A stretch of 64,000 nucleotides of DNA from an uncultured Candidatus Saccharibacteria bacterium (GCA_964623775.1 CAZUVH010000001.1:40790-104789), one strand, 5' to 3'; counted from the stretch's first letter, positions 14,826 through 63,443 are shown. The notes: generated by a model from the sequence alone, not told the origin. Program-made: numbers and translations.

Positions 14826-15075
14826 AGTGCTGAAGGAGGCACTCGGGTACTTCCCGGGCCCGCAACTTCGGGTTTCATGTGCAAAAGGGAGAATCTCGTG
14901 ATTCTCACACGTGGTGACGGCGGCGGCGCATAACCGACTGTCGTGAAAAGAGATGGAAAGTGATGTGTGAAGTTTGAGTCCGGCATCATTTCGGGTTCGG
15001 GATTGTCACATGTCCTTTCCCCAACAGGGCGGCTCTGCGAGAAGCAGAGCCGCCCACAACTTTATCTTTTTTGCT
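14826..15075 (+). ncRNA. candidate small RNA (or tiny-peptide transcript), unassigned
   Basis: ~240-nt unit bounded by the consensus promoter and the intrinsic terminator gggcggctctgc-gaga-gcagagccgccc + T-run at 15028-15075. Contains AAGGAGG with no usable start after it. Only 11-18-codon ORFs (MILTRGDGGGA, MCKRENLVILTRGDGGGA) are present. Several internal GC hairpins. Does not match RNase P, tmRNA, SRP or 5S rRNA signatures by eye. Confidence 0.3.
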
Positions 15076-28573: not shown

Positions 28574-28718
28574 ATCTTCATAATAGCAGTAAATATTGTG
28601 CGACCTATTTTTCTTGCCCGTACTTGGGTCTGGAAACAACGGAAGTGCCCTTGTGGCGCGACATTGAATTCATACACATGTCGCGCGTGCTAGATTTGAA
28701 ACGGGAAGGAGACTGGCT

Positions 28719-40488: not shown

Positions 40489-42096
40489 GTGTACATACCC
40501 GCCTACAATGTCCCCACTATGGGGTCAAAGCAGGCGATCGCTTCCGGTTTTGCTCGTGTCTTTGGCGCACAACCGATGCTGCCGAAAGCCACAATCGTCT
40601 CGATCGAGTGCGACATTGTAAAAGGACTGCACGCATTCACGATCGTGGGACTACCTGACAAATCGGTGGAAGAAGCAAAAGATCGCATCGCTGCTGCGAT
40701 CAAAAACACCGAGCCACCAGTCCCGACAGGACGCGAAGAGAACGGCTATGAATCTCCAAAGCGCAGTAATAAAAAGATCGTGCTCTCACTCGCGCCCGCC
40801 GAGCTCAAGAAAGAGGGTGCGGCTTTTGATATTCCACTCGCACTTGCGTTTTTACTTGCATCCAAGCAAGTCAAATTCGATCCCAAGGGAAAAATATTTG
40901 CCGGGGAGCTCGCGCTCGATGGCAGCGTACGAAAAATCCTCGGCACGCTTTCCATTACAGCTGCAGCACGTGACGCAGGTTACACAGACGTCTACATACC
41001 GGCAGAAAATGCCGAGGAGGCGTCGCTCATTACGGGATTGCGAATACATCCGGTCGTTTCACTTCAGGGGCTTGTCGAAGAACTCTCCGGTGACACACTC
41101 ACTGAATACGTACCGAGAATGAAGGATGTTTCATACGAGAGTGCCGACGCCGCACTCGATGAGATCCGCGGGCAAGAGAGCGCGAAGCGCGGTCTCATCA
41201 TCGCCGCAGCGGGCGGTCACAATATCGCGCTTTATGGACCGCCAGGCACTGGCAAGACGCTGCTCGCACGCGCAGCCACCTCCATTCTTCCAGATCTTTC
41301 AGAGGATGAGATAGTCGAAGTAACGACCATTCATTCGCTTGCAGGTGTGTTACACGGCGGCCCGATGTTTCGTCCACCGTTTCGCTCGCCACATCACACA
41401 TCATCATACGCGTCGCTTATAGGTGGCGGTTCATCGACAATCCGTCCTGGCGAGGCAACACTCGCCCACAGGGGAGTGCTCTTCGCCGATGAATTTCCTG
41501 AGTTTCACCGTGATGTGATCAACGCACTGCGCGAACCGCTCGAAGATCGCGTTGTCTCGATTTCACGCGCGAAAGGTTCTGCAATATTTCCCGCGAATTT
41601 TATGCTCATCGCCGCACTCAATCCGTGTCCGTGCGGATTTGCCGGCACCTCGCAATGCCAGTGCATGCCGCACTCTATAGAAAAATATCGCCGCAAAATT
41701 TCCGGACCAATCGCGGATCGCATCGATATGTGGGTGTCGGTCGGACATTTGCCGATCGAGACGCTCTCGACACAACAAAAAGCGGTGAGTGGAGAAACGG
41801 CGCGCGCACGAAGGTCAGTCGCTGATGCGCGCAAACGACAAAGGGAGCGATTCAAGGGTGCACGCGGCATGTCGACCAACGCCGACATGGGACCCAAAGA
41901 AATCGAGTCGCACGCAAACCTCTCTCCGAAAGCTGAGGAGACGCTTGTGGGCGCAGCAAAATCCCTGAAGCTCTCCCCGCGTGGCTACCACCGCACCATC
42001 AAGCTCGCACGCACCATTGCCGATCTCGCCAGTAGCGACACGATCGAGCCTTCACACATGCTCGAAGCTCTACAATATCGCGCACGTGAAATATAA
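40489..42096 (+). CDS. comM: Mg-chelatase-like AAA+ protein ComM/YifB family
   Basis: Lon-like N-domain, Walker A GPPGTGKT and the ChlI-type C-domain. The start could be an internal Met at 40519 or 40576. Confidence 0.85.
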   Translation: MYIPAYNVPTMGSKQAIASGFARVFGAQPMLPKATIVSIECDIVKGLHAFTIVGLPDKSVEEAKDRIAAAIKNTEPPVPTGREENGYESPKRSNKKIVLSLAPAELKKEGAAFDIPLALAFLLASKQVKFDPKGKIFAGELALDGSVRKILGTLSITAAARDAGYTDVYIPAENAEEASLITGLRIHPVVSLQGLVEELSGDTLTEYVPRMKDVSYESADAALDEIRGQESAKRGLIIAAAGGHNIALYGPPGTGKTLLARAATSILPDLSEDEIVEVTTIHSLAGVLHGGPMFRPPFRSPHHTSSYASLIGGGSSTIRPGEATLAHRGVLFADEFPEFHRDVINALREPLEDRVVSISRAKGSAIFPANFMLIAALNPCPCGFAGTSQCQCMPHSIEKYRRKISGPIADRIDMWVSVGHLPIETLSTQQKAVSGETARARRSVADARKRQRERFKGARGMSTNADMGPKEIESHANLSPKAEETLVGAAKSLKLSPRGYHRTIKLARTIADLASSDTIEPSHMLEALQYRAREI

Positions 42097-43771: not shown

Positions 43772-44482
43772 ATGAATCTCCGTGAGACTTTCACACGACT
43801 TGGGCTGCCAAAACACAGCGACGAGATTTTTTCGACTCTGGAGAAAAGCGGACCGTCATCGGTGAGTGCACTCAAAAACGCGACCGGCGTGCATCGCCCC
43901 GCCATCTACCGTTCACTCAAGGCGCTTTTAAAGAGAAGGCTTGTTTCCGAAAAAACGTTTGGCAAGCGAATCTACTACGTGGCTGAATCCCGTGCGCATA
44001 TAACAAAAATCTTTGTGCACACAGCCGAAGAGGTGACACGTCTTGAAAGTGGTGCACCAAAAAATAGTGCGGGGGCAGTCAGATACTTCGAAGGGGAGAG
44101 TGCCGTCACCGCGCTTTTCAATGACCTCGTTGAGCACAGCAGGCGCGGCGACACCTTTTACCGATATACGTCGGAAAAAAACCTCGATCAGGTGAATCGG
44201 CTTTTGCCTTCCGATTACCGCAAGCGTCGAGACGCAAAGAGGCTCGAGCGCCTTGTGATCAGTAATCCCGAGTCGGGCAAGCGCAAACAAAACAGGCTCG
44301 AGCGTTTTATAAAATTCCTCGGCTCAGAAAAAGAATCGTTCCATCAAAACGCAATCCAGCTCATCTACGGAGATCGCCTCGCGTTTATTGATCTCAATAC
44401 ATTCAAAGGCTTCATTATAGAAAACAAAACCCTCGCCGAATTCCAAAAAACGATCTTCCGAGCGCTCTACAAGCGTCTTTAG
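43772..44482 (+). CDS. TrmB-like HTH transcriptional regulator (paralog 3)
   Basis: N-terminal wHTH LGLPKHSDEIFSTLEKSGPSSVSALKNATGVHRPAIYRSLKALLKRRLV, with a C-domain collinear with the other two paralogs. Confidence 0.65.
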   Translation: MNLRETFTRLGLPKHSDEIFSTLEKSGPSSVSALKNATGVHRPAIYRSLKALLKRRLVSEKTFGKRIYYVAESRAHITKIFVHTAEEVTRLESGAPKNSAGAVRYFEGESAVTALFNDLVEHSRRGDTFYRYTSEKNLDQVNRLLPSDYRKRRDAKRLERLVISNPESGKRKQNRLERFIKFLGSEKESFHQNAIQLIYGDRLAFIDLNTFKGFIIENKTLAEFQKTIFRALYKRL

Positions 44483-46019: not shown

Positions 46020-47048
46020 TTAGAATGGATTGCGGATGCCGTTGCGGATCTCGAAGTGGAGGTGCGGGCCGGTGGCTTTACCTGTCGCGCCCACGTAGCC
46101 GATCACTTGCCCCTTCATCACATGCTGTGCACCGTATGCCGTAACTCTCGACATGTGGCTGTAGAGCGTCTGGCTGCCGTTGCCATGCTGGATCACGACA
46201 TAGCTGCCGTAGCCGCCGTTGTATCCGCCCTGCTTCGCGATAATCACATCGCCTTCAGCAGACGCGAGGACCGGCGTCCCGACTGGAGCTGCGAGGTCAA
46301 CGCCGTTATACCCGTGCACACCCTGGGTGCGCGTACCGCCGATGAGCGGTCGCAGGTAGTAGCCGATCTCCATAGGATTACCCGCTGGTCCGACGTTGCG
46401 GGCTGGTGCAGTAGAAATCCTGGTCGGGGCAGGGGCGGCAGCGATTTCGCCATCAGGGATGATGATTTCAGCGCCTACGGCGAGCTCGTCGATGCCGTTG
46501 TAACTCGCGATTTCGTCGGCATTTCCGCCGTATTTCTTGGCAATTGATGAAAGCGTGTCACCCTTCTTGACCGTGTATTTGATACCGGTGACAGGGAGGA
46601 TGGTAAGCATTTGCCCGATTTGGAGACTAGAGCCACGGGGGATGTCATTGGCCCAGAGAATGGTGTTGGGGGAGACGTTGAACATCTTGGCGATGCCCGT
46701 TAGGGTATCGCCCGCATGTACGACATACACACTGATGGTCGCGTCTTTCGGTTTCTCAATATCGGCTATCGTGCCCGATGGACCCTCTTCCGGCATGAGC
46801 GCTGTGTCGTCGACGATCGTGATCTCGCCACCGCCACGAGCGGCAGAGGGGTCGATATTCATGGCGGGTCGGAGAAGTGGCATGGTCTGAAGATTGCTCG
46901 TACTTGAGATCGCCTCGGCATCCACCGGCCGGCCTGCAAACATGTCTATAATGTCAGTGAAGACACCTGCATGTACGCGAAACGGTAAGAGCGCGCCGAT
47001 GAGAAGCGTCAAAGAGATGAGTGGGACCGCTGTGCGAACAGCGCGCAA
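46020..47048 (-). CDS. LysM-domain M23 family metallopeptidase
   Basis: Signal peptide, two LysM repeats (YVVHAGDTLTGIA..., YTVKKGDTLSSIA...) and an M23 catalytic domain with the HLHFE motif. Confidence 0.85.
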   Translation of the reverse strand: MRAVRTAVPLISLTLLIGALLPFRVHAGVFTDIIDMFAGRPVDAEAISSTSNLQTMPLLRPAMNIDPSAARGGGEITIVDDTALMPEEGPSGTIADIEKPKDATISVYVVHAGDTLTGIAKMFNVSPNTILWANDIPRGSSLQIGQMLTILPVTGIKYTVKKGDTLSSIAKKYGGNADEIASYNGIDELAVGAEIIIPDGEIAAAPAPTRISTAPARNVGPAGNPMEIGYYLRPLIGGTRTQGVHGYNGVDLAAPVGTPVLASAEGDVIIAKQGGYNGGYGSYVVIQHGNGSQTLYSHMSRVTAYGAQHVMKGQVIGYVGATGKATGPHLHFEIRNGIRNPF

Positions 47049-50068: not shown

Positions 50069-50185
50069 TTCTGACCACGGCTCGCCGGCGCAGCCCATGG
50101 ACTGTTTTTATCTCAGGCACGGATCAAATTTTGCCGTCCCCACGCCTCGCGGTCGCGCAAGCTTGCGCGACATCGCTCCGGCCGT

Positions 50186-50240
50186 CCAGTAGGAGAAAAA
50201 AGGGTGCGCAGGCACCCTTTTTCTACCTACTGGACCCCAT
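50186..50240. terminator. long nested hairpin gtccagtaggagaaaaaagggtgc-gcag-gcaccctttttctacctactggac
   Basis: ~24-bp stem between rsmA (+) and the minus-strand gene ending at 50223. Likely a bidirectional terminator. A second 20-bp perfect palindrome, GTCGCGCAAGCTTGCGCGAC, lies at ~50148-50168. Confidence 0.5.
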
Positions 50241-50567
50241 CATCGTAATCAAGATTCCGGGCCAAACGATAACTGGTTCGATAGAGACCACGCAGTAGTA
50301 GGGAGGACCGGCGAGACCAAGGTGCCACTGGCCTGCATGCGACGGCGGACCGAATTGATACGTGCGAGTAGAAGGCGTCCAGATGAAATCGCCTCCGCGT
50401 GGCGGGCCGGTGCGTGCAAAGATCGCACTGTTGTAACAAAAGATGATTTGAGAAATCTGTCCGCCGTACGGAAATGCCGAGGTGAATGTGGGGACGACGA
50501 GCGCAAGTATTATGAGGATCGCGGCAAACATGAGAATGAGTCGTATCACAGACAATTTCATGTGCAT
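50223..50567 (-). CDS. hypothetical membrane/secreted protein (114 aa)
   Basis: N-terminal hydrophobic helix MKLSVIRLILMFAAILIILALVVP. Divergent from the T4SS-like cluster. Confidence 0.4.
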   Translation of the reverse strand: MHMKLSVIRLILMFAAILIILALVVPTFTSAFPYGGQISQIIFCYNSAIFARTGPPRGGDFIWTPSTRTYQFGPPSHAGQWHLGLAGPPYYCVVSIEPVIVWPGILITMMGSSR

Positions 50568-50606
50568 AGCAAAATTCTACCATGTATTCAGTGGTACAAT
50601 TTTTGA

Positions 50607-51575
50607 ATGGGGAAATTACCGCCAATGCACATAATCGAGATCGAAAATCAAAGTACTCCAGAAGTCGTCGCCCCGCATTCGCAGCACTGGGTCTCTGCGC
50701 ATCCCATCACCGCATCTTTGATAGCATCGACGGCGTTACTCTTGATTGGCAGCGCGATCGTGTTTCGTCACTCTGCAGCAAACCCGCCAGCACCCGTCAT
50801 CACCGCCTGGGGCGGGGGCGGTATTGATCCATACAACACGGTCACCGGCTCGGTGACCGCAGATCAGGAAGAGATCGTACAACAGGTACAAAACAACCCG
50901 CCCTACACATACGTCATACCTGATCTAAAAGGCAACACGACCCCCTCGTCTCCGCAGCCCACCGAAAATTCCAACGATCTGCTGGATTTTGAGCAGTTTA
51001 TGGCGGGATTGGGGCAAAGCACCGCACCGGGAAATACCGCACCAAAAGAGGTCGCCGATATTACCAACGCGTTTCCTCCCACTTCACTCTTTATCGCGCC
51101 CACACCGAAAACGGATCGGACACCTCTCCAACAGGCGCTTTACAACTACGGGAACGAGATCGGGTCGTACATCCAGTCATACGAGCAGCAGCATCCAGAT
51201 CAGACACAAGTCCTGAAAAATCACATCGAGGACCAGAATAATCCGATCAAAATAAATGCGGTCGTCCAGATGGGACGCGACCTTCAGGGTATTGGCACAA
51301 GCCTTCTCGGTATGGAAGATGTGCCAGCGCAGGTAAGCGCGGCGCACAAGAAGCTCGCCGAAAGCTACCAGACCATCGGTAAAAACCTCACACTTGTACC
51401 GCAAGCCAAGGGAAATGATGCGCTCTTAAGCGCGATTGGCACGTACAACGCCTCTGCGGATGTGTTTGCAAAAGATCTCGTTGCGCTCGTAGGATTTTTC
51501 TCAATGTACGGTGTCACCTTTAGCGCCGAAGATGCGGGAAACATCTTCACGTTTACCTATTCGGGCGGAATGTAG
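50607..51575 (+). CDS. hypothetical single-pass membrane protein
   Basis: TGGTACAAT extended -10 just upstream (near-leaderless). TM ITASLIASTALLLIGSAIVF. The C-domain loosely resembles that of the next gene. Confidence 0.4.
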   Translation: MGKLPPMHIIEIENQSTPEVVAPHSQHWVSAHPITASLIASTALLLIGSAIVFRHSAANPPAPVITAWGGGGIDPYNTVTGSVTADQEEIVQQVQNNPPYTYVIPDLKGNTTPSSPQPTENSNDLLDFEQFMAGLGQSTAPGNTAPKEVADITNAFPPTSLFIAPTPKTDRTPLQQALYNYGNEIGSYIQSYEQQHPDQTQVLKNHIEDQNNPIKINAVVQMGRDLQGIGTSLLGMEDVPAQVSAAHKKLAESYQTIGKNLTLVPQAKGNDALLSAIGTYNASADVFAKDLVALVGFFSMYGVTFSAEDAGNIFTFTYSGGM

Positions 51576-51704
51576 CATCACGTATGACGCGCCCTGCCCC
51601 AACGCCAACGCTGGCATTTTCTTGCTGCGCCTTTAAGACTCAAAGTGAAATACACGAGTGACGTTGTGTGACTTTCTATCCCCGAAAACACCAGATATGC
51701 AGCC

Positions 51705-52544
51705 ATGCCAACGTTGGTGAGGGGGTATAATTCTAGTGTGGAAAAAGAACGCTCACACGAAAGCGGTTTTTCGGTTATTGAGGTCACTGCGATCCTTGCC
51801 GTTCTCGTCTTGATCGGATCAGCACTCTGGCAATCGCAGGCAAAAATCGATACGCAGAAAAAAAATCTCACCTACGAACAGCAGTCTGCCCCCGAATCTA
51901 CGGACTCGCTCGAAGACGACCCGCTCGCGCAAGCACTTGCCGATGTCACCGCAGCAGGGAAGCCCGGCACGATCGGCACCGCTGTCATGAATCAGATGTT
52001 GAACTCCTACCTCGTCTCCAAAAACAACGGTACGTATTCGCCCGAATATGCTGCGGCACTCGGGAGCTCACTCGCACCGATGATTCAAAACACGCTCGCG
52101 TACCAGACCTTTTCCGAGAAAAATCTCGTGATCAATCCAGACACATCGGAGAAAGCGTCCGTTGCATACCAGAAGGCGCTGTATGACGCGCTCGCGCCAC
52201 TGCGCACCAACACCGCGCCCGAGTTTGAGTTTTTCGCTCTCTACGTGCAGACGAAAGACCCCGTACATCTCGTGCGCCTACAAAGCGTGGCAACACTCTA
52301 TCGAGACGCGGTCGCCAATGCGGCTGTCCTTTTCGTGCCGTCTGACGTAGCTCAGAGGCATGTGGCGATTCTCAATGCGATGGGGGAATTCGCTGCCGCA
52401 CTCGACGCGCTTGCCCTGCATGCTGATGATCCTATCGAATCCGTCGCGCTCTTGCGCGATTACAACGCGGGCGAACAGCACGTGCTCGCCGCATTCAACG
52501 CACTTCAGTCCTACTACGCCACCAAATATGCAAAACGCTCATAA
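51705..52544 (+). CDS. prepilin-type N-terminal cleavage/methylation-domain protein (pilin/pseudopilin-like)
   Basis: ...ERSHESG|FSVIEVTAILAVLVLIGSAL fits the class III signal (G|F-x-x-I-E-hydrophobic), followed by a 250-aa extracellular domain. Confidence 0.55.
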   Translation: MPTLVRGYNSSVEKERSHESGFSVIEVTAILAVLVLIGSALWQSQAKIDTQKKNLTYEQQSAPESTDSLEDDPLAQALADVTAAGKPGTIGTAVMNQMLNSYLVSKNNGTYSPEYAAALGSSLAPMIQNTLAYQTFSEKNLVINPDTSEKASVAYQKALYDALAPLRTNTAPEFEFFALYVQTKDPVHLVRLQSVATLYRDAVANAAVLFVPSDVAQRHVAILNAMGEFAAALDALALHADDPIESVALLRDYNAGEQHVLAAFNALQSYYATKYAKRS

Positions 52545-53997
52545 CATCACCCTGTATATTGTGGGCGCAGCGCTCGTGCTTTTACTGAGTGCGACGCATA
52601 GTGCATACGCACAGACAGTCCAGTATCCGAGCGGTATCACGACGTGCGAACGCACCGGCGCTGCGGGACTCAGCTCGTCGGTCGGCTCGTTCTCCCCGAT
52701 TGGCGGGCCATATGTGCCGGTCGTCGATTATGCCGTCGAGCTCAATTCAGCAACACTTGTCTACAAAGAATGCGTGCTGCGGCAACTCGTCGATCAGCAA
52801 AGAAAAGCGGCCGTTGCGCTCATCACGAAAGATACGTTGCAAAAATTCATGACACAGCGAAATGGCCGCCCGATGTTCCCGGGGTATCTCCAGGGCGAAG
52901 TCGTCGAGAGAGAGGACGCCGCGATGGCTCGCACACTCAGGAGTCCGTCGCTTGCGACGATCAACCCGGCTTATAAAAACCTGATCCTGGGTGCTATCGC
53001 GCTCGACTACCGCGTCGACACGCGCGCGTACAACAACACAGTTACCTGCCCGTACCAGGGCAACCTCGATACGATACATAAGGCGCGAGATTTTACGTTT
53101 GATGGATTGTGGATAGGGGTGGGCGATCCGCGATGCCGGCCACTCGACGTATACTACCCAGCTTCCGATATCGCACACAACGACGTCGCGCTCGATCAGC
53201 AAGAGATGGGGTATCGCCTTAACACAAGCAATGGCCTCTACGGTCTTGAAGCGATCGATGCAAACGGCAATCGCATCACGCTCACGCCCGGTATATTCAC
53301 GCGCGACGTCGCGAGCCAGGCACTCACATCTGGTTTCCGAATGCTCGAAAGTGCGGATGATGTCGGTGAAGTCGTCGACGCGCTTTTTGCGGCAATGGGC
53401 GATCAAGCTCTCACGAGTGCTCCCGGGGGTGGGACGAGCGGGCTTTCGGGTCTCGGCGGTGGACTCTCGGGCATGATGAATGGTTCCAACAATTACTTCA
53501 ATCAGGTGTTGCAAAGTCAGCTCGGGGGCTTGGGTGGCACGATCACGACCGGTATTCTCGCTACACTGCAAAATCTGCTCGCCAACGAGCAGCTCTACAA
53601 CCAGGTCGTGATCGCGGTAGGACAACTCATTCAAAAAGCGACGGACGATCTCAAAAAATACGAGGCGAAATGCTTCTCCGACACTACGCACTCTGAGCAG
53701 GTTATCAGCACGAATTTTGCTCCAATCGTCGTCGATATCGCCCCAAAAATCGCAAGCTCGACTGCCGCTGTTACTGGCTTGCAGGCACTCATTGCGCAGG
53801 TGAGCGGGCCGAATCCGCCGAGCAATGCGCAGATCACCGCGACGCTCACTTCGCTGGGATTGCACTCACAACAACAAACACAGGCAGAGCAGTCGCGCCT
53901 GCAGACACTCCAGGTCGATATCACACAATTTGTGCAAAATGTCGTTGCCGGCTGGCAAAACAGTGCATCCGTTCCCGTCGGGTGCGGACAACTATGA
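52526..53997 (+). CDS. secreted hypothetical protein with Gly-rich segment
   Basis: Signal peptide MQNAHNITLYIVGAALVLLLSATHSAYA. Internal Met start overlapping the previous gene's end. The track ORF start at 52360 is out of context. Confidence 0.45.
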
Positions 53998-56321
53998 TAT
54001 CCATGACTCACTCATCAAGAATAATTCGCGACGCGATCATCGGAGTCGTTCTTTTCATGAGCATCGCGCTCCCACTCCTCACACCCTCGTACGCTTCGGC
54101 GCAAGCGCCGAGTGGCGGCGCAGCAGCGAGTGTAAACACTCCGAATGCACGGCCGACCGTATGCGACGGCGGATTACTTTCGATGTCGTCTCTTGATCCG
54201 GTGTGCTGGTTCCGCAGAATCACCGCCGCACTCGGCGCATCCATCATACAAATCGCCATATGGGTCCTTACGGTCTCTGGCATGCTCTTCAATCTGCTCG
54301 TGGATCACACGATAATCAACTTTGGACAATTTCTATACGGTAGTGAAATGAAAAGCGCGATCGAGACGGCCTGGACCGCCTTCCGCGACATTTCCAATAT
54401 TGTGATCATCGGCATGTTCGTATTTATGGCGATCATGACAATCCTCGGCAGCATCGACTATGGGTATAAAAAGCTTGTCGCAAAAATCATCATCATCGCC
54501 GTTCTCATCAATTTCAGCCTGCTCTTTACGAAGATTATTATCGATTTCTCGAATTTTGCGGCACTGCAGTTTTACAACGCGGCCAGCCTCCAGGCGAGCC
54601 CCTCTTCTACGGGAGCTGCGACCGACCCAAATACGACACAGCAAAAAGGCATTTCCGGAGCGTTTCTCGACTACATGGGCGTCACCGGCATCGGCGACAG
54701 TTATTCCGCAGTGAGAAAAGTCGCTGAATCGAGCGATAGTGGAGGATTGGCGCTCCTTCATGCGATTATCGCGAGTATTTTTATACTTGCTGCAGCGATC
54801 GTACTCTTCTACGGATCGTTCCTGCTCGCCTCTCGTGCACTGCTTCTGATTTTCCTCCTCCTCACCTCATCCATTGCATTCGCCACATACTTGATACCGA
54901 TTGGGGTTGTGAATTCCACCTGGGGGTGGAAAAAGTGGTGGAGCTCACTTCTTCAAAGCGCCGTCTTCGCCCCGCTTCTCATGATATTTCTGTGGGTAAC
55001 GCTCGCGATTGGGAGGGCACTAAAGGATCAGGCGGGGACGCTCGGCGACCTCCTCACCAACCCAACAAAGGGGGCTAATTATGAGTCGCTCTTTGGCTAC
55101 ATTATAGTGCTCGGGCTTCTCTTCATCTCGTTCAAGATTTCATCAAGTTTTGCGGCCGGCATCGGCGGATTCAATTACGCCGCGATGATACCTGCGGGCC
55201 TCGCCGGGATCGGTGCTCGAGCTGCAGCCATGTCAACAAGATGGACTGTCGGGGCAGGAGGTAGATGGGCTGGTGAAAAACTACAGGCGCAGGCTCGCAA
55301 CACAAATCGTTCTGACTTGAGTAGATCTCTCTTTGATTTCGGCGCAAAACCATTCCAGGCTCTCGCTAAGAAAGACTTCAATCCTTTACGGAACGCGCTG
55401 GGTGGCCAGATGGCAAAGATGGCAGGCCTGAAGAAGGAGACACTCGGTGGTGAAAAGGTTGGCGGATTCGAGGGTACAGTTAAAAATTTCCAGAAGGCGC
55501 TCGGGGAACGAGCAAAGAACATGACTCCGACGAAGGAGGAGTTGGAAAAGCAGCTGGAAGCTCGTAAAGCTGCAACAACCACACTAAAACCTGAGGTTCC
55601 AAAACCATCGACGATGGCTCCGCCCGAGGACAAAAAGAAAGACACTGAGACGGTTCGCGCAGAAGAGCTCAAGGCGTACTTTGACAATAATCCGAAAGAA
55701 AAAGAGGTTCATGAAAAGGCGAAAGAAGAGGTGCACATCAGTAAGGAGGACATGGATGCATCCCGCCGCACAAATGCTGACGTGGTTGCGAAGTTGTCAC
55801 AAAGCATCAAGGGTCTCAAGGAACAGCAGGCTACTTTGCGTAGCAACAAAGCCGACACCGTGGCCATAGCCCGCGCTGATGAAATCCAGAAAAAAGTTTC
55901 GGAATCTAAAGTGGAATTGGGCAGAGCACTGAAAGAGCGGCGCGAACAAATTAGGGAGGCCACAAAAAAATCTCAGGTGGCGGATGAAAAACTAAGAGAG
56001 ATTGAGAAGAAGGCGGTGGACGCGATGCAAGATCGCGTGCGAACACAACAGGAGCAGAACGCGAGCATAAAGGAGAGTGACGTTAAGGAAAAGAATACCA
56101 CAGAGGCCATCGCACAGAGACTTGCCGATAAAAGTCTCACTGGCGTGCTACTGAAGTCGCTTGGGGTGTCGAGTAAATCCCTTTCTAGTGGCGCAGTAAA
56201 ACATCTGAAAGAGCAGGCGAAGAGGGAGCGAGCGAAACTAAATGCTGAGGAGCGTAAGAAACTTGACGACAAAGACAAGCCAAAGAGCGAGCCCCCAGCG
56301 CCTGCTGGCGATAAACACTAA
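53994..56321 (+). CDS. VirB6/TrbL-like polytopic membrane protein with long charged coiled-coil C-terminal tail
   Basis: ATGA overlap with the upstream gene. Signal/TM plus about 6-8 TM helices over ~450 aa, then ~300 aa rich in K/E. This architecture is common in T4SS VirB6/TrbL proteins. Confidence 0.45.
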   Translation: MISMTHSSRIIRDAIIGVVLFMSIALPLLTPSYASAQAPSGGAAASVNTPNARPTVCDGGLLSMSSLDPVCWFRRITAALGASIIQIAIWVLTVSGMLFNLLVDHTIINFGQFLYGSEMKSAIETAWTAFRDISNIVIIGMFVFMAIMTILGSIDYGYKKLVAKIIIIAVLINFSLLFTKIIIDFSNFAALQFYNAASLQASPSSTGAATDPNTTQQKGISGAFLDYMGVTGIGDSYSAVRKVAESSDSGGLALLHAIIASIFILAAAIVLFYGSFLLASRALLLIFLLLTSSIAFATYLIPIGVVNSTWGWKKWWSSLLQSAVFAPLLMIFLWVTLAIGRALKDQAGTLGDLLTNPTKGANYESLFGYIIVLGLLFISFKISSSFAAGIGGFNYAAMIPAGLAGIGARAAAMSTRWTVGAGGRWAGEKLQAQARNTNRSDLSRSLFDFGAKPFQALAKKDFNPLRNALGGQMAKMAGLKKETLGGEKVGGFEGTVKNFQKALGERAKNMTPTKEELEKQLEARKAATTTLKPEVPKPSTMAPPEDKKKDTETVRAEELKAYFDNNPKEKEVHEKAKEEVHISKEDMDASRRTNADVVAKLSQSIKGLKEQQATLRSNKADTVAIARADEIQKKVSESKVELGRALKERREQIREATKKSQVADEKLREIEKKAVDAMQDRVRTQQEQNASIKESDVKEKNTTEAIAQRLADKSLTGVLLKSLGVSSKSLSSGAVKHLKEQAKRERAKLNAEERKKLDDKDKPKSEPPAPAGDKH

Positions 56322-56325
56322 AACC

Positions 56326-56910
56326 ATGAACGATCAGATTGAAGAGAAAAAGTATGACGAGGTAATTCAGGAGAGACTCTCGCAACTGCCGAAAGTTGTC
56401 CAAGACGCTATACGCTCCGGTAATGTAACAGAACACATGCGTAAGCTTGCCGAGGCCCATAAACTACACTTGGATCAGTGGCAAACGCTTGAACAGGAGG
56501 TCCAGTTTACTTTACTCGGTTTTCAACCTGCTGAAGAGCTCGAACAAAATATTAAAAATGAAGTGGGGGTCTTGGACGAGGTTGCTCACGCGCTTACCCT
56601 TGATATCTCTCACACTGTGTTCGAGCCAATTCGCCAAGAGCTTGAGCGCACTCTCGGAAATCCCGAGGCGAAGAAAGTGGAGGTGAGTGACATGGAGGCG
56701 TCGCGAACACAGGCGATAGCGATCGAAAAAAAGTCGGCCACTCCAGAGGCTGCTGCAGCGCCCAAGACTGTCGCACCCGCCACGCCGCCTGCTCCCGCAC
56801 CTCAGGGCACCGCAAAGCGCGCACCGATTGCTGATACCTATCTCTCGAGCAGTCCGAGTCACGAGCGCAAAGTAATCGAGGGTGATCCGTACAGGGAGCA
56901 GACTTCTTGA
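56326..56910 (+). CDS. hypothetical soluble protein (~194 aa)
   Basis: Internal Met MNDQIEEKKYDEV directly after the previous stop. No family recognised. Confidence 0.4.
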   Translation: MNDQIEEKKYDEVIQERLSQLPKVVQDAIRSGNVTEHMRKLAEAHKLHLDQWQTLEQEVQFTLLGFQPAEELEQNIKNEVGVLDEVAHALTLDISHTVFEPIRQELERTLGNPEAKKVEVSDMEASRTQAIAIEKKSATPEAAAAPKTVAPATPPAPAPQGTAKRAPIADTYLSSSPSHERKVIEGDPYREQTS

Positions 56911-56922
56911 CGCCAACAAGGG

Positions 56923-57033
56923 GTATACCCCGCACCACTTTTAACACCCGGGCGATGGGCGACTAACTTCATTAAGTTTTGAGTGGCTAGTTATCAACGA
57001 ATTATAAAAGGTTTAAAAGTGGTGCGGGGTATA
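56923..57033. promoter_or_regulatory. inverted-repeat arms GTATACCCCGCACCACTTTT (56923-56942) and AAAAGTGGTGCGGGGTATA (57015-57033) separated by ~72 bp, with TATAAT inside the right arm
   Basis: Same 20-mer arms as at 39392-39435. The right arm ends 8 nt before the ATG at 57042, so the mRNA is essentially leaderless. Confidence 0.55.
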
Positions 57034-57041
57034 ATTACTGA

Positions 57042-57614
57042 ATGCAGTTTCAGGTTCCTCAATTCATCGAGGTGGAGGACAAGATCTTCGGCCCGCTCAC
57101 GTTTAAGCAGTTCATATATATAGGAGGGGGGATAGGGGCAGCTTACTTACTCTGGCGCGTCCTGCCGATGTACGTCGCGGCCCCCATCATTGCGGTAGTG
57201 GGTGGACTTGCCGCAGCGCTTGCGTTTTTCCAATACAACGGGCGTCCATTCATAATAGCGCTCGAAAACGCCTTCTTTTTCCTTGTTCGCAGCAAGCTCT
57301 ACCTCTGGAACAATGAAAACAAGAAAAAGTCACGAGAGGTGGTCGAGCAAAATTTTGCACAGGCGTCTAATCTATATGTTCCGAAACTCTCGGGCAGCAA
57401 GCTGCACGAACTCGCGTGGAGCCTCGACATCAAGGAGCGTATCGCCGGCGGTGTCGCCACAGAGTCCGAGCGCACAGGAAATCGGCCTCCCGAAGATATA
57501 TTGGCTCCCATAAAGACCGCGAGGGCAGCAGCAGCGACCAGAGAGCAATCACTTGCGCAGCAGATTGAGAGCTTGGCACGCCAGCGCGCCAATACTGCGC
57601 CGTCTACACAATAA
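57042..57614 (+). CDS. PrgI-family (VirB3-like) T4SS membrane protein
   Basis: MQFQVPQFIEVEDKIFGPLTFKQFIYIGGGIGAAYLLW matches the PrgI-family N-terminal signature (..VP..I...E.KIF..LT.RQ...), followed by a TM hairpin. Confidence 0.5.
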   Translation: MQFQVPQFIEVEDKIFGPLTFKQFIYIGGGIGAAYLLWRVLPMYVAAPIIAVVGGLAAALAFFQYNGRPFIIALENAFFFLVRSKLYLWNNENKKKSREVVEQNFAQASNLYVPKLSGSKLHELAWSLDIKERIAGGVATESERTGNRPPEDILAPIKTARAAAATREQSLAQQIESLARQRANTAPSTQ

Positions 57615-57616
57615 AT

Positions 57617-58285
57617 ATGCCTCCACAGACATCTCTTCGCTCCAATACGAAATCGACGCAGGAATTCGTTCCGATCTCTGAAGTACGCGACGGTATCGTG
57701 GTTATGAAAGACGGAAGCCTGCGTGGCATCCTCCTCGCCTCATCGATCAACTTTGCCCTCAAATCGGAAGATGAACAGACGGCGTTTATAGTTCAATTTC
57801 AAAACTTTCTCAACTCACTCGATTTTTCGGTGCAAATTTTCGTACAGTCGCGCATGCTCGATATTCGTCCATACATCACCACGCTCGAAGCGCAGTTCAA
57901 ACAGCAGCTCGACGACCTTATGCGCGTACAGATTCGTGAATACATTCAATTCATCAAGAGCTTTACCGAGGCTGCAAACATCATGACGAAAAATTTCTTC
58001 GTCGTTGTACCGTACTCACCGAGTATCGCCGTGACGGCGGCGAGCGCGAGCTCATTCTTGCCGTTTGGAAAAAAGAGCACAAAGGCGGAGGACAACAAGA
58101 CATTCGAGGAACAAGCCTCTCAGCTCGAGCAACGCATCTCGATCGTACAGCAGGGTCTTGTGCGTACAGGCGTACGCACTGTGCAGCTTGGTACCGAGGA
58201 GACTATCGAGCTTCTCTACAAGATGTTCAATCCGGGCGAAGAGGGAAAGCCGATTCCGGTCTCGGAGCTCGCAAATCAAAGATAG
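57617..58285 (+). CDS. VirB4/TrbE N-terminal domain (separate ORF)
   Basis: FVPISEVRDGIVVMKDGSLRGILLASSINFALKSEDEQ..IQIFVQSRMLDIRPY is collinear with the N-domain of Gram-positive-type VirB4 (PrgJ/TrsE). Ends with TAG 1 nt before the next ATG, in a different frame. Confidence 0.6.
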   Translation: MPPQTSLRSNTKSTQEFVPISEVRDGIVVMKDGSLRGILLASSINFALKSEDEQTAFIVQFQNFLNSLDFSVQIFVQSRMLDIRPYITTLEAQFKQQLDDLMRVQIREYIQFIKSFTEAANIMTKNFFVVVPYSPSIAVTAASASSFLPFGKKSTKAEDNKTFEEQASQLEQRISIVQQGLVRTGVRTVQLGTEETIELLYKMFNPGEEGKPIPVSELANQR

Positions 58286-58286
58286 T

Positions 58287-60206
58287 ATGGCACTCCTCGA
58301 CTTATTCAGAAAAAAACCCGCCGCAGACGACGCCGCACGCGTACTGCCGGTTTTGCCCGAAGAAATCTACAATACCGGCGTTCTCGATCTGCAGGACGTG
58401 ATCGCCCCACACGCGCTCAAGGTCAACTCCCGCGAACTCGATCTCGGCGAAAAGATCGCCCGTACATTCTTCGTCATTTCGTATCCACGCTTTCTGACGA
58501 CGGGCTGGTTTGCGCCGATCATCAACATGGACAAAGTGATCGATATTTCGATTTTTGTACACCCGATGGATACGAATGAGATGCTCCGTAAGTTCCAGAA
58601 AAAAGTCGCCGAAGTACAGAGCCAGATCGCGACCCGCGAAGAAAAGGGGATGGTGCGCGATCCAATGCTGGACACTGCATATACCGACCTCGAGCAACTG
58701 CGTAATTCGCTACAACAGGCGCAGGAGCGCATCTTCGAAGTGGGTCTCTACCTTACGATCTACGGCAATTCGCGTGAAGAGATCGATAAGATCGAGAGCG
58801 AGGTCCGTTCGATCCTTGAATCCCGCCTCGTGTACATCCGCCCGGCACTCTTCCAGCAGGAGCAGGGCTTCAGGAGCGTTTTGCCGCTTTCGACCGACGA
58901 GCTTGCGGTCCACACCAAACTCAATTCCGCGCCGCTTTCTTCAATCTTTCCATTCATCTCTTTCGACCTCACGTCCGACCGCGGCATTCTCTACGGCATC
59001 AACAGACACAACTCATCGCTCATTCTTTTCGATCGATTCTCGCTCGAAAACTACAACTCAGTGACGTTTGCAAAATCGGGTGCCGGCAAGTCGTACACGA
59101 CAAAACTCGAAATTCTACGCTCACTCATGTTCGATACAGAGGTGATCGTGATCGATCCTGAGCGTGAATACGAGTATTTGGCGGAGACCGTGGGCGGCCG
59201 CTACTTCAATATTTCGCTCTCTTCCGAACACCACATCAATCCGTTTGATCTTCCGATTCCGCGTGAGGATGAAAATCCGGGCGACATCTTGCGCAACAAC
59301 ATCATCACGCTCGTCGGGCTCTTCCGCATCATGCTCGGAGGACTTACGCCCGAAGAAGATGCTGTTATCGACAAGGCAATCACCGAGACCTACGCGCTCA
59401 AAGACATCACGGCCGATGCCAATTTTGCCGCTGTCGAGCCGCCGCTGCTCTCAGACTTCGAGCTCGTGCTCTCCGGCATGGAGGGAAGTGACTCACTCGT
59501 CGCGCGCCTTTCGAAATACACGAAGGGCACCTGGTCGGGATTCATGAATCGCCCGACAAACGTGGACATGAATAAAAAGTTGATCGTGTTTTCCGTCCGC
59601 GACATGGAGGACGACTTGAAGCCCGTGGCGATGTATATAATCACGCACCACATCTGGAATGCGGTGCGAAAAGAGCTCCGCAAGCGCCTCCTCGTGATCG
59701 ACGAGGCCTGGTGGATGATGAAATCTCAGGATACGGCGAGCTTCCTCTTCGGTATTGCAAAACGCGGACGCAAATACTATCTTGGCCTCTCTACAATCAC
59801 ACAAGACGTCAACGACTTCCTTACATCACCGTACGGGACAGCGATGATCACAAACTCTTCGATCCAGCTACTCTTGCGTCAATCGCCCACCTCCGTCGAT
59901 CTCGTACAAAGCACCTTTAAACTCTCCGACGAGGAAAAGTACCTGTTGCTCGAATCCGACGTAGGGGAAGGCATCTTCTTCGCAGGCCTCAAGCACGTCG
60001 CGATCAAGGTGATTGCCTCTTACACAGAAGATCAGATTATCACCTCCGATCCTTCACAAATTCTCGCGATCAAGAAGGCGAAGCGAGAGCTTGCCGCATC
60101 AACAGAAATTCCTGAAGAAGCGCTCCCTGGTGCGCAGCATGCTGCTCCGGGTGCTGATACTGCACCTGTCTCCAAGATGACTTCGCAGAGTATTTCGACT
60201 CAATAA
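58287..60206 (+). CDS. VirB4/TrbE-family T4SS ATPase (C-terminal two-thirds)
   Basis: P..I..........F.ISYPRFL.TGWF membrane-proximal region, Walker A KSGAGKSYT, Walker B VIVIDPEREY, and C-terminal motifs DEAWWMM and GLSTITQ. The track ORF 58065..60206 starts inside the previous gene. Confidence 0.85.
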   Translation: MALLDLFRKKPAADDAARVLPVLPEEIYNTGVLDLQDVIAPHALKVNSRELDLGEKIARTFFVISYPRFLTTGWFAPIINMDKVIDISIFVHPMDTNEMLRKFQKKVAEVQSQIATREEKGMVRDPMLDTAYTDLEQLRNSLQQAQERIFEVGLYLTIYGNSREEIDKIESEVRSILESRLVYIRPALFQQEQGFRSVLPLSTDELAVHTKLNSAPLSSIFPFISFDLTSDRGILYGINRHNSSLILFDRFSLENYNSVTFAKSGAGKSYTTKLEILRSLMFDTEVIVIDPEREYEYLAETVGGRYFNISLSSEHHINPFDLPIPREDENPGDILRNNIITLVGLFRIMLGGLTPEEDAVIDKAITETYALKDITADANFAAVEPPLLSDFELVLSGMEGSDSLVARLSKYTKGTWSGFMNRPTNVDMNKKLIVFSVRDMEDDLKPVAMYIITHHIWNAVRKELRKRLLVIDEAWWMMKSQDTASFLFGIAKRGRKYYLGLSTITQDVNDFLTSPYGTAMITNSSIQLLLRQSPTSVDLVQSTFKLSDEEKYLLLESDVGEGIFFAGLKHVAIKVIASYTEDQIITSDPSQILAIKKAKRELAASTEIPEEALPGAQHAAPGADTAPVSKMTSQSISTQ

Positions 60207-60553
60207 TGAACTATTCCCGTATCAGCAAGACGACGGGGATCGCCCTCATCGTGGCCGCCACACTCGTTGACCTCGCGCAATTCTTCGCGACATTTCTCGC
60301 GCTTATCCCTTTTATCGGCTTTGTTATTGTCTTCGCTGCAAACACCCTGATCAGTGTGTGTGCGCTCATTTTTTTCGGAATATGCTTTTCGCACGTGGGC
60401 GTGAGCCTACTTGATTCGAGACGCGCCCTCGGGACCCTTGGCACAATTCTTGGAGAGGCGGTGCCGTTTATAAACAGTATGTTGTGGTGGACATGTCTTG
60501 TTTCGTACATTGTCATCACAGAGTGGAGAAAGCCGGAAGGTGCTGTGGAATGA
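60206..60553 (+). CDS. small three-TM membrane protein (T4SS-associated, hypothetical)
   Basis: Start overlaps the VirB4 stop (ATGA-type coupling). Very hydrophobic. Confidence 0.4.
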   Translation: MNYSRISKTTGIALIVAATLVDLAQFFATFLALIPFIGFVIVFAANTLISVCALIFFGICFSHVGVSLLDSRRALGTLGTILGEAVPFINSMLWWTCLVSYIVITEWRKPEGAVE

Positions 60554-60566
60554 GCGGTATAATTAC

Positions 60567-61637
60567 ATGATGCTCGTGGTGCGAAACATCCTAACCACTT
60601 CGCTTTTATCGATTAGCTTTCTTTTGGTTCTCAATCTCCCTGTATACGCGCAACTTGAATTACCGAACATGGCGAGTTCTATATTCATCACCACCATCCC
60701 CGAACATCCTGGGCCGGGAGAGACCGTGCGTGTCTACGCACAAAGTGTTTTCTACGACCTCCTGAAGGCAAACAATGTGTGGGAGGTCAACGGCAAGGTG
60801 GTCGCTCAGGGGATAGGGGTGACGGAGGGCACGTTTGTAGTGGGAGCGCTCGGATCCCGAAATACCGTCGTGTTTGAGGCACAGTCCGATACGAGCACTG
60901 CCAGTGCCCGCCTGACCATCATCCCGACCGAAGTCGACCTCTTGTATGAGGCAAGTTCCTACGTGCCACCTTTCTATCGCGGACGCGCGCTTCCTTCAGA
61001 GGGGACCCTTGTGCGGCTCACAGCCTTGCCGCGATTTCAGAGTTCAGGCGGAAATTTTATCCCTGCCAGCTCTCTCTTATATACATGGAAGCGAAACGGC
61101 TCGACGGTGGCTGCTGTTTCAGGAAGAGGAAAAAGTTCTGCCGTATTTCCCTCGCCGGTTCTTTTTGGTACCGACGTGATCGCGGTTGATGTCACAACAG
61201 CAGATGGCACCATGACTGGCAGTGCACTTATTAATATCCCCTCGACGAAACCCTTGCTTTTACTCTACGAGGATCATCCGCTTTTCGGTGTGACCTATCA
61301 TAAAGCGCTCGGGCCTGCGACTTTCGTCCCTGAATCAGAGGCGACCTTCGTCGCGGTACCGTTTTATACCAATGCAGTGAGTTCTAATGACAATTCGTTT
61401 GACTACAACTGGACCGTCAACGGTCAGCGCATTCCTGCCGATACTGTTAGGAAAGGTTCGATTACAATCAGTTCTGCTGGGCAAAAGACGGGGGTCGCAC
61501 ACGTGCAACTCGATCTCACGCAGCCGCAAAATCCGTTCTTTAGCGCTCGAGGTGAGTGGAGTATTTCTTTCTCCGAAATACGCGGAAACAGGGCTCCCGA
61601 CGGTACAATCAATAATCCATTCTTACCTCGCCAATAA
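60567..61637 (+). CDS. secreted hypothetical protein (beta-rich)
   Basis: Internal Met MMLVVRNILTTSLLSISFLLVLNLPVYAQ acts as a signal peptide. Confidence 0.4.
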   Translation: MMLVVRNILTTSLLSISFLLVLNLPVYAQLELPNMASSIFITTIPEHPGPGETVRVYAQSVFYDLLKANNVWEVNGKVVAQGIGVTEGTFVVGALGSRNTVVFEAQSDTSTASARLTIIPTEVDLLYEASSYVPPFYRGRALPSEGTLVRLTALPRFQSSGGNFIPASSLLYTWKRNGSTVAAVSGRGKSSAVFPSPVLFGTDVIAVDVTTADGTMTGSALINIPSTKPLLLLYEDHPLFGVTYHKALGPATFVPESEATFVAVPFYTNAVSSNDNSFDYNWTVNGQRIPADTVRKGSITISSAGQKTGVAHVQLDLTQPQNPFFSARGEWSISFSEIRGNRAPDGTINNPFLPRQ

Positions 61638-61638
61638 T

Positions 61639-62934
61639 ATGCAAAAGAGCCTGCTCGTCGTTCGATACCTGATAGTCATAGTTGTCGTATTTGCGCTGGT
61701 GGGGTTATTGGGCTGGTATTTCTTCTTGAAGTCCCGCACAAGCACGACTGTCGCGCTTGATGACGCTCGCGGACTTGATTCAACTGCACCTTCGTTTACC
61801 GGAAGCACCGGCAGTACGTACGAAAACATCGCACAAACCACAGTAGAAGATACCGGGCAAGTGAGTGCGGAGACAGTAAGTGCTCCGCCCCAACTCTGGC
61901 GCGTATCACAAACACCGACCTCCGGTATGGGATTCGTGGAGGATAGTGCATTTCTAAAAGTGTATTTTGTCGAACGCGCAAGCGGCAATGTATTTTCTGC
62001 AGATGTCATAAACGGGAAGGTCGAACGCCTCACAAACACACTCTTACCGAGGACATACTCAGCAGCAATAACTCGTGACGGTGCCGTAGCTCTTCGTGGT
62101 ATCGATGACGGGGGCAAAACAACTCTTTTCGCGGGCACTATCCCTCCGAAGACGGCGCCCGCCACGGCCGAGATATCCTCCTCGTCACCTGTGGCGATGA
62201 AAGGCACGAGCCTTGCAGCAGACGTGAGTGACCTCGCAATAAATCCAAAAACGAACGAGGTCTTTTACGTCCTTCCTGATGCAAAAATCGGCGCAATCGG
62301 CATCCGAAGCTCGTGGGATGGGAAGGTGCAAAAGCGTGTACTTGAATCCGGCATTATCGGCTGGCGACCACTGTGGCTCTCCGATGGCCGCATCGTTCTC
62401 ACACAATACCCGGCGTACGATCTTCCCGGTAACGCATACGTGCTTGAGAGTGGGGGTACTTTGACACCACTTATCCGCAACATCCCGGGTCTTACAATAT
62501 TGCCGCGCGCCTCATCGAAGACGTTTGTGTACGGCACTGCGACGGGCGGGACAATCGCAATGTACGTCCAGAAAGAAAAGAAGGAGCCAGAACTACTCCC
62601 AATCAAAACAATTGCCGATAAATGCGTGTGGGCGCCAAAAAAAGAGTTTATTCTTTACTGCGCAGTGCCCCAGACGCTTGGCTCGGGTAATTTCATTGAT
62701 AATTACCTGCAGGGTAGAATTCACACATCCGATACGTGGTGGGAAGTGAACACTGCGGACGGCACTGCACAGATATTCTTTGTGTCGGATAGTTCTTCCG
62801 GGGCGATTGATGTAATTCAGCCGACAATCGACGAAAACGGCAAATACATTTCATTTATGAACGGGTTTGACCAGTCTTTGTGGGTACTTCGGATGCCGAC
62901 CAATACAGAAAACACCGCAGCATCAGTAATATGA
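61639..62934 (+). CDS. membrane-anchored hypothetical protein, possibly beta-propeller-like
   Basis: ATG 1 nt after the previous stop. N-terminal TM LIVIVVVFALVGLLGWYFF, then a ~400-aa extracytoplasmic domain. Confidence 0.4.
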   Translation: MQKSLLVVRYLIVIVVVFALVGLLGWYFFLKSRTSTTVALDDARGLDSTAPSFTGSTGSTYENIAQTTVEDTGQVSAETVSAPPQLWRVSQTPTSGMGFVEDSAFLKVYFVERASGNVFSADVINGKVERLTNTLLPRTYSAAITRDGAVALRGIDDGGKTTLFAGTIPPKTAPATAEISSSSPVAMKGTSLAADVSDLAINPKTNEVFYVLPDAKIGAIGIRSSWDGKVQKRVLESGIIGWRPLWLSDGRIVLTQYPAYDLPGNAYVLESGGTLTPLIRNIPGLTILPRASSKTFVYGTATGGTIAMYVQKEKKEPELLPIKTIADKCVWAPKKEFILYCAVPQTLGSGNFIDNYLQGRIHTSDTWWEVNTADGTAQIFFVSDSSSGAIDVIQPTIDENGKYISFMNGFDQSLWVLRMPTNTENTAASVI

Positions 62935-63443
62935 AAGACAAAATAAAAAAATGGTTTAGGAACATGAGGACCACAAGTTCTGGTCTTCTCTTCCAGGCGA
63001 CGACGCAATTCGTCCCGCTCGCGCCGATAGACGCGCAGCAGGGGAGCAAACTTTCGGGTATTTATACCGGTGGCGATCTTTCGACCTATATCAGTAAGAT
63101 GTTTGTTTTTGCACTCTCAATCGGCGCCATAATCGCCGTGGTTCGTCTCATGTGGGCTGGGTATCTCTACATGGGGGAGGGCACCATCGGGAGCATTTCA
63201 AAGGCAAAGGAGGTCTTTCGTGAGGTTATTATCGGATTGCTGTTGCTGCTCGCAATCTACCTGATACTTCAAAAGATAAATCCACAGCTCTTAAACATTA
63301 CAATTCTCAACAGTATAAAAAGTACGCCGTCGACAGGGCAGCAAGTACCTGCCGGGACACAGAAACAAGGTACTCAAACATGCGGGGGATCGTGCTCGTG
63401 GTGCGACACCGGGACAGGACAGTGCATTATTCCGGCCAACTAA
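62931..63443 (+). CDS. two-TM small protein, candidate VirB2/TrbC-like pilin with Cys-rich C-terminus
   Basis: ATGA overlap with the previous gene. Hydrophobic helices FVFALSIGAIIAVVRLMWAGYLYM and VIIGLLLLLAIYLIL separated by a short loop. Tail CGGSCSWCDTGTGQC. Confidence 0.3.
   Translation: MKDKIKKWFRNMRTTSSGLLFQATTQFVPLAPIDAQQGSKLSGIYTGGDLSTYISKMFVFALSIGAIIAVVRLMWAGYLYMGEGTIGSISKAKEVFREVIIGLLLLLAIYLILQKINPQLLNITILNSIKSTPSTGQQVPAGTQKQGTQTCGGSCSWCDTGTGQCIIPAN

Follow-up and report, generated by a model that had tools for sequence, protein, structure and literature searches.

The DNA analysed here, called the window throughout, is a stretch of 64,000 nucleotides (nt) from an assembly listed as an uncultured Candidatus Saccharibacteria bacterium (GCA_964623775.1, CAZUVH010000001.1:40790-104789); positions are counted from its first letter. 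Near its 3'-end, at 50223-63443, lies a gene cluster resembling a type IV secretion system (T4SS), which consists of 12 co-directional genes (50607-63443) and one small divergent gene (50223-50567). The cluster was noticed earlier in a reading of the sequence alone (the original prediction). Its open reading frames (ORFs) were placed correctly there: independent gene calls on the source contig, a public contig with identical proteins, give the same models, two genes having alternative starts (51705/51738-52544 and 60567/60570-61637). The genes had been counted as eleven and co-directional; their direction was right, and the missed gene is the one encoding a soluble protein of 194 amino acids (aa) at 56326-56910. 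Relatives of the VirB4 protein were collected by scanning one genome per species, which yielded at least 555 loci, and the best 80 of these were compared; all counts of loci below refer to these 80. The core components of the system are the following.

53994-56321, plus strand: polytopic membrane protein, 775 aa, with a Lys/Glu-rich tail of about 300 aa; probable "extended" VirB6 (51/80 loci)
57042-57614, plus strand: PrgI/VirB3-like membrane protein, 190 aa (PF12666, E-value 4.8e-11; 75/80 loci)
57617-58285, plus strand: TrsD-like protein, the N-terminal domain of VirB4 as a separate gene, 222 aa (78/80 loci)
58287-60206, plus strand: VirB4-family ATPase without the N-terminal domain, 639 aa (NF045971, PF19044)
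62964-63443, plus strand: VirB2-like T4SS pilin, 159 aa, with two transmembrane (TM) helices and a Cys-rich C-terminal tail (4 Cys)

Profile searches assigned four of these proteins, PrgI, TrsD-like, VirB4 and the pilin, three of them above curated cutoffs. The PrgI/VirB3 call is confirmed by PF12666 (43.5 bits; gathering cutoff 27). VirB4 scores 359.7 bits against a cutoff of 325 with NF045971 (the CD1110 family), the match covering model positions 185-733 only; it also matches PF19044 (2e-24) and the Firmicute VirB4 structure 4AG5 in PDB (1e-43), and its Walker A (AKSGAGKS) and Walker B (LLVIDE) motifs are intact. It is 25% identical to residues 228-772 of PrgJ from pCF10 (about 550 residues, E-value 1e-37), and the alignment starts only at PrgJ residue 228. 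The 222-aa protein encoded immediately upstream matches NCBIfam NF045975 (4.1e-12, model positions 99-235), NF041427 TrsD (1.6e-7) and TIGR00929 (positions 3-178), and carries the precomputed annotation PF26593 (TraC-like). BLASTP of this protein against PrgJ gave no match, the relationship being detected by profile models only. Since the 222-aa protein matches models of the VirB4 N-terminus and TrsD, whereas the ATPase aligns from PrgJ residue 228 on, the split VirB4 noted in the original prediction is real. The genes of PrgI, the TrsD-like protein and VirB4 are contiguous, with gaps of 1-2 nt.

The candidate VirB2/TrbC-like protein with two TM helices also held up: with the called start it scores 26.9 bits against the PF18895 cutoff of 26.6, 44 of its 48 orthologues match the same family (best E-value 6e-11), and five match PF04956 (TrbC/VirB2). 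For the 775-aa protein, the described topology and tail were borne out, with about seven hydrophobic segments and 40% charged residues at 471-775. It is probably VirB6. The copy in the window has no Pfam match, seven of 56 orthologues match PF04610 (TrbL/VirB6, best E-value 4.6e-5), the comparison of its profile with pCF10 PrgH by hhalign is weak (probability 24%, E-value 8.5e-4), and the gene occupies the position of prgH in pCF10, upstream of prgI. Sequence searches of PDB with the TrsD-like protein, the VirB6-like profile and the pilin profile returned only noise or coiled-coil matches. The general description of the cluster as T4SS-like, combining parts of the Gram-positive type (PrgI, a split VirB4 and a VirB6-like protein) with a pilin resembling VirB2, is therefore backed by profile searches for PrgI, VirB4 and the pilin. 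The remaining cluster proteins have no Pfam or NCBIfam family, as had been expected for most of them.

The cluster is embedded in the chromosome among housekeeping genes. The 50 kb upstream contain nusA, tig, rny, pnp, cca, uvrD and ksgA; ppa, clpP, PhoH and MgsA genes, a XerC/D-like recombinase gene (27662-28639) and a gene for a ComM-like ATPase (40489-42096) are also found in the window. Downstream, jag, yidC, rnpA and dnaA follow (window-equivalent positions 63453-66674); the start of dnaA is about 1.4 kb beyond the last position of the window, so that some 2 kb separate the T4SS from the presumed origin of replication. The best 80 loci all come from metagenome-assembled genomes of Patescibacteria labelled Kaiserbacteria, Paceibacteria or Parcubacteria, with 74-93% identity of VirB4. 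PrgI, the TrsD-like protein, VirB4 and two accessory proteins, an immunoglobulin (Ig)-domain protein and a beta-propeller, are present in 70-80 loci, and the four genes at the upstream end, including the divergent one, in only about 17-20, that is, at the Kaiserbacteria level. The order uvrD-ksgA-cluster-jag recurs in related loci, and the layout up to dnaA is common to dozens of related species. GC content is uniform, and no direct repeats flanking the cluster were found. Domains of relaxase, VirD4 or VirB11 were absent from all sizeable ORFs of the window and about 1.5 kb past its end, in line with what had been reported from the window sequence. Given the conserved chromosomal flanks in dozens of species, we consider the cluster a vertically inherited feature and not an integrative and conjugative element (ICE). 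The comparison of relatives and of flanking integration signatures proposed with the original prediction thus gave conserved flanks and no flanking repeats, and the fixed position between uvrD-ksgA and jag-yidC-rnpA-dnaA in many Paceibacteria species agrees with its view that the element is not self-transmissible.

We conclude, with a probability of roughly 0.8, that the cluster is a chromosomally fixed, vertically inherited T4SS of the type characteristic of Patescibacteria (the "Patescibacteria clade", which falls within the MPF_FATA class of monoderms), carried by a Kaiserbacteria/Paceibacteria-like genome. It is a typical instance of a system already described for ultra-small Patescibacteria (the Candidate Phyla Radiation, CPR) and not a new kind of system. 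A survey of 3,035 Patescibacteria genomes found VirB4 in 2,417 of them, almost all in one clade within MPF_FATA (Quinonero-Coronel et al. 2025, Microb Genom, PMC12102498). The genes near virB4 in these genomes encode TrsD, VirB3/PrgI, VirB6 and VirB2-like pilins, PF18895 being among the profiles used; relaxases and neighbouring type IV coupling proteins (T4CPs) are nearly absent there, VirD4 homologues are far from virB4 in most Patescibacteria, and the virB4 neighbourhood in Paceibacteria includes dnaA, dnaN, rnpA, rpmH and ksgA (PMC12102498). The window has the TrsD-like protein, PrgI/VirB3, VirB4 and the PF18895 pilin of this set and probably also VirB6, likewise lacks a relaxase and T4CP beside virB4, and shows the same chromosomal location near ksgA, rnpA and dnaA. 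Membership in the clade rests on the NF045971 score and the VirB4 identity of 74-93% to the 80 Patescibacteria species. Nothing essential differs: the published neighbours are mostly unannotated, whereas two have been modelled here, and there is a single pilin gene and no array. The novelty implied by the original prediction is thus not upheld, as published work has already reported this architecture from thousands of genomes of Patescibacteria (PMC12102498). What is added here is modest: two fold assignments, a corrected start and gene count, and an apparently leaderless promoter architecture.

The closest system studied experimentally is that of Southlakia epibionticum ML1 (Saccharibacteria), whose T4SS locus is essential for epibiotic growth and contains pilins and no recognizable coupling protein or relaxase (Wang et al. 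2023, Cell, PMC10633639); this work and the survey are summarized in a 2025 review of T4SS nomenclature (PMC12857230). The two loci share the Gram-positive-type core, VirB2-like pilins and the location at the chromosome start (SEML1_0006-0019 in S. epibionticum), and neither contains a recognizable relaxase or coupling protein. They differ in several respects. S. epibionticum belongs to the class Saccharimonadia and has an array of six pilins, whereas one is encoded here; peptidase and lysozyme genes directly follow virB4 at its 3'-side there, whereas the downstream genes here are those of the Ig-domain protein and the propeller, with the sole hydrolase candidate 3 kb upstream; and essentiality was shown in S. 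epibionticum, the one species accessible to genetic work. Among conjugative MPF_FATA systems, the enterococcal pCF10 has the same order of the VirB6-like, PrgI and VirB4 genes (prgH-prgI-prgJ) and shares the PrgI family. However, it has a one-piece VirB4, the hydrolase PrgK, the VirB8-like PrgL, the T4CP PcfC, a relaxase and LPXTG adhesins, and no pilin; the window cluster has a split VirB4 and a VirB2-like pilin, and no T4CP, relaxase, VirB8 or LPXTG adhesin. A separate TrsD-like protein is also found in systems of the pGO1 type, pGO1 being a conjugative staphylococcal plasmid with a relaxase and T4CP, but the score of the window protein is far under the NCBIfam cutoff (NF041427, 1.6e-7, 31 bits against a cutoff of 200).

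The best-conserved cluster genes lacking a known family lie between virB4 and the pilin gene. Confident AlphaFold2 models were obtained for their products from alignments of about 60 homologues each.

60570-61637, plus strand: secreted protein, about 355 aa, with three tandem Ig/fibronectin type III (FN3)-like beta-sandwich domains
61639-62934, plus strand: seven-bladed beta-propeller, 431 aa, membrane-anchored at the N-terminus

Both proteins are predicted to be located outside the cytoplasmic membrane, and neither modelled fold is VirB8/NTF2-like. For the second gene, a VirB8/NTF2 or a TolB-like fold had been suggested; the former is rejected by the model, and the latter was right insofar as the fold is a beta-propeller. 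We found no paper in the Patescibacteria literature that describes either protein as a T4SS partner. Their location and co-conservation with virB4 suggest that they form an envelope-spanning or host-contact part of the machine.

The genes of the cytoplasmic-membrane core are in the order VirB6-like, PrgI/VirB3, TrsD-like and VirB4, with the pilin gene at the cluster end. The mechanism that we propose is as follows. The VirB4 ATPase would be docked at the membrane by PrgI and its own detached N-terminal domain and would energize both the assembly of a channel lined by VirB6 and the polymerization of pilin subunits, which would yield a short pilus or a conduit across the monoderm envelope. The three-Ig protein, the anchored propeller, a Cys- and Gly-rich secreted protein and the signal-anchored proteins would make up the envelope-spanning and host-contact part, these exported proteins taking the place of the modules (VirB8, adhesins, hydrolases) known from conjugative systems of Gram-positive bacteria. 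As in S. epibionticum, to which we argue by analogy, the machine would most likely serve the passage of proteins or other molecules between host cell and epibiont, and not DNA conjugation. A secretion or host-interaction machine, as opposed to a self-transmissible element, was also favoured by the original prediction and is the current published view (PMC12102498, PMC10633639).

Three other explanations were weighed, one of which concerns a single protein of the cluster.

51738-52544, plus strand: signal-anchored protein with a conserved C-terminal domain, 268 aa (g02); G|FSVIE motif at 51765

This protein had been described as a bona fide prepilin of 279 aa, its type-IV-pilin-class signal being seen as atypical for a T4SS and as implying a prepilin peptidase shared with pilB/pilC. 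ATG 51705 is probably not the start; the most likely one is GTG 51738, which gives 268 aa, is preceded at a distance of 6 nt by a TATAAT box (at 51726) and agrees with the MEKER beginning of close homologues. The motif itself (ESG|FSVIEV followed by a hydrophobic stretch of about 20 residues) is present, conforms to the textbook class III signal and is the only one in the six-frame translation of the window, and the Gly-Phe pair looked conserved among 30 database homologues. When related loci were scanned broadly for signal anchors of this Gly-Phe type, the outcome was mostly noise. A profile search of 1.84 billion representatives then yielded 1,880 matches with E-values up to 1e-3, 114 of them with alignable N-termini. 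In this set Gly is found at position -1 in 60 sequences (53%), Phe at +1 in 53 and Glu at +5 in only five (4%), and the commonest residue at +3 is Pro. All five cases of Glu+5 are the window protein and its nearest relatives, one further relative has Gln, and none of the 16 species-level orthologues has Glu. Since a family dependent on prepilin peptidase would keep Gly-1, we read the protein as a signal-anchored one, with the N-terminus probably resembling a pilin leader in one small subclade. Thus the motif stands, the wording "bona fide" is too strong for something that is not a conserved family feature, and the conclusion about a shared peptidase is not supported. It is unlikely, though not exclusive of the T4SS reading, that the system is a T4SS/type IV pilus hybrid in which g02 is processed by prepilin peptidase and contributes to a pseudopilus working with the T4SS. 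The retention of Glu+5 in the four nearest relatives, the Gly-Phe pair found ahead of the TM segment in about half of the family members and the presence of pilB and pilC in the same window speak for it. The family frequencies given above do not; moreover, after the TM segment come a linker of low complexity and a stretch apparently unlike the pilin head domain, no Peptidase_A24 (prepilin peptidase) was found in the window, and the gene is 45 kb from pilB/pilC. The latter are located on the minus strand at 3276-5009 (pilB) and 771-1985 (pilC), with a gene for a DKNYY-family protein between them (2440-3252, minus strand).

VirB4, PrgI and the VirB6-like protein have homologues among the conjugation proteins encoded by ICEs and plasmids of Firmicutes, which, along with the tyrosine recombinase gene at 27662-28639, could point to a part or decayed remnant of an ICE having its relaxase, coupling protein and integrase just outside the region. 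We consider this highly improbable: the recombinase is XerC/D-like and located 22 kb away, the housekeeping flanks recur in dozens of species, the uniform GC content and the absence of flanking repeats and, within the window, of relaxase or T4CP domains speak against it, and a relaxase is encoded near only 15 of 2,474 Patescibacteria virB4 genes (PMC12102498). Less improbable, but still quite unlikely, is a T4SS for DNA uptake or DNA release (like Helicobacter ComB, archaeal Ced or the gonococcal genetic island, GGI) that would be a source of nucleotides or genes for a cell unable to make them. The nucleotide auxotrophy of the organism would fit such a function. So would the lack of a relaxase and T4CP, a weak NCBIfam match of VirB4 to CedB (2.8e-9, far below the cutoff), the ComM-like ATPase at 40489-42096 and the co-localization of T4SS loci with comF, recG and radA in the class ABY1 (PMC12102498). 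On the other hand, competence of S. epibionticum depends on comEC and type IV pili, and its loss leaves viability unaffected, whereas the T4SS is essential (PMC12857230); therefore the essential role of the T4SS is not DNA uptake through ComEC. In addition, there are no competence genes in or beside the cluster, and the VirB4 found here resembles ATPases of conjugative MPF_FATA systems far more than it resembles CedB.

The interpretation as a Patescibacteria-type T4SS has its own weak points. The VirB6 assignment is weak, given the lack of a direct Pfam match and the hhalign result, and among the cluster's products neither a VirB8-like nor a VirB1-like protein was recognized. The analysis covered the window and about 1.5 kb past its end, and the gene of a coupling protein could lie in another part of the genome. 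A more specific version of the T4SS reading, to which we assign rather low credence, is that in Paceibacteria a lineage-specific extracellular module (the three-Ig protein, the propeller, the Cys/Gly-rich protein and the single pilin) replaces the VirB8, VirB1 and adhesin parts and makes the host contact or conduit, and that, in the Kaiserbacteria subclade to which this genome belongs, the 268-aa component has moreover gained a working prepilin-type signal, by which the T4SS would be linked to type IV pilus processing.

The other proteins of the cluster are listed below together with a peptidase encoded outside its boundaries.

46020-47048, minus strand: LysM + M23 peptidase (PF01551, 9e-29; PF01476, 9e-25)
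50223-50567, minus strand: small membrane or secreted protein, 114 aa (g00), divergent, with N- and C-terminal hydrophobic segments; no Pfam match
50607-51575, plus strand: single-pass membrane protein, 322 aa (g01), TM residues 29-54; no Pfam or NCBIfam family
52528-53997, plus strand: secreted protein, 489 aa (g03), with a signal-like N-terminus, 6 Cys and a Gly-rich patch; no Pfam or NCBIfam match (20/80 loci)
56326-56910, plus strand: soluble acidic protein, 194 aa (g05), no TM segment or family match; between the VirB6-like gene and prgI in 44/80 loci
60206-60553, plus strand: multi-pass mini membrane protein, 115 aa (g09), hydrophobic from residue 9 to 71 and beyond

The divergent gene is found at the same position in 18 of the 80 loci, with about 64% identity, and on the basis of this synteny it may belong to the system. 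Orthologues of g01 are present in 17 loci, at the Kaiserbacteria level only; g01 and g02 were also considered as possible paralogues, and BLASTP showed no significant similarity between them. The mini membrane protein g09 is detectable in only four loci, some close relatives have no gene there, and in the closest species the Ig-domain gene comes almost directly after virB4; this marks it as a variable insertion, the rest of the operon being conserved. The LysM + M23 gene lies 3 kb, or three genes, upstream of the cluster; in five distant Paceibacteria loci with flanks extending far enough, it has the corresponding position ahead of uvrD-ksgA-T4SS. Candidates for VirB1 containing M23/LysM have been noted near virB4 in Paceibacteria (PMC12102498), and we tentatively regard this peptidase as a putative VirB1-type cell-wall hydrolase of the system.

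The spacing of the genes and the positions of promoter-like boxes suggest about four transcription units. Gaps of 162 nt (between g01 and g02), 131 nt (between g05 and prgI) and 16 nt (between g09 and the Ig-domain gene) separate g01, g02-g05, prgI-trsD-virB4-g09 and the block from the Ig-domain gene to the pilin gene. A TA(T/C)AAT box lies exactly 6 nt upstream of ATG 50607, GTG 51738, ATG 57042 and ATG 60570 (box-to-start stretches 50595-50609, 51726-51740, 57030-57044 and 60558-60572); in g01, for example, TACAAT is followed by 6 nt and ATG, which makes up its own promoter of the leaderless type. Such -10-like boxes 6 nt before four start codons point to leaderless mRNAs. In most related loci, an extended -10 box (TGnTATAAT or TATACT) is found 6-8 nt before the prgI ATG. 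A generic scan of the cluster for sigma-70 promoters and terminators showed no enrichment over shuffled sequences; the promoter signal is the -10 box alone, abutting the start codons. A few other genes of the window show the same box geometry, e.g. at 21042, 24737 and 15823 (minus strand). The spacer upstream of prgI carries one more element.

56924-57041, no strand assigned: prgI promoter region with a perfect 21-bp inverted repeat (56924-56944 / 57013-57033), arms 68 nt apart

The right arm of the repeat overlaps the GGGGTATAAT box located 6 nt upstream of the prgI ATG, and the left arm holds the palindrome GGGGTATACCCC. The repeat may serve as an operator pair or form an RNA structure, and may have a regulatory role; related loci have short hairpins in the prgI spacer and lack this 21-bp repeat. 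Another hairpin (50184-50235, 24-bp arms, 4-nt loop), situated where ksgA and the divergent 114-aa gene converge, looks like a bidirectional terminator.

Elsewhere in the window, three regulators of the TrmB family with helix-turn-helix (HTH) domains are encoded (15062-15856, minus strand; 19553-20332, minus strand; 43772-44482, plus strand) within 64 kb of a very small genome. Two large ORFs outside the cluster (37281-39362, plus strand, 693 aa; 4846-6177, plus strand, 443 aa) have no Pfam match at E-values up to 1e-3.

The window supplies a clean, well-delimited Paceibacteria example of the system with a full gene model, which would be of use for annotation and experiment design and should come as no surprise to a specialist. 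The gain consists in fold assignments for the two VirB4 partners that are best conserved among those lacking annotation and in evidence for leaderless operons near the origin. T4SSs of Patescibacteria are among the few candidate machines for host exploitation by ultra-small epibiotic bacteria.

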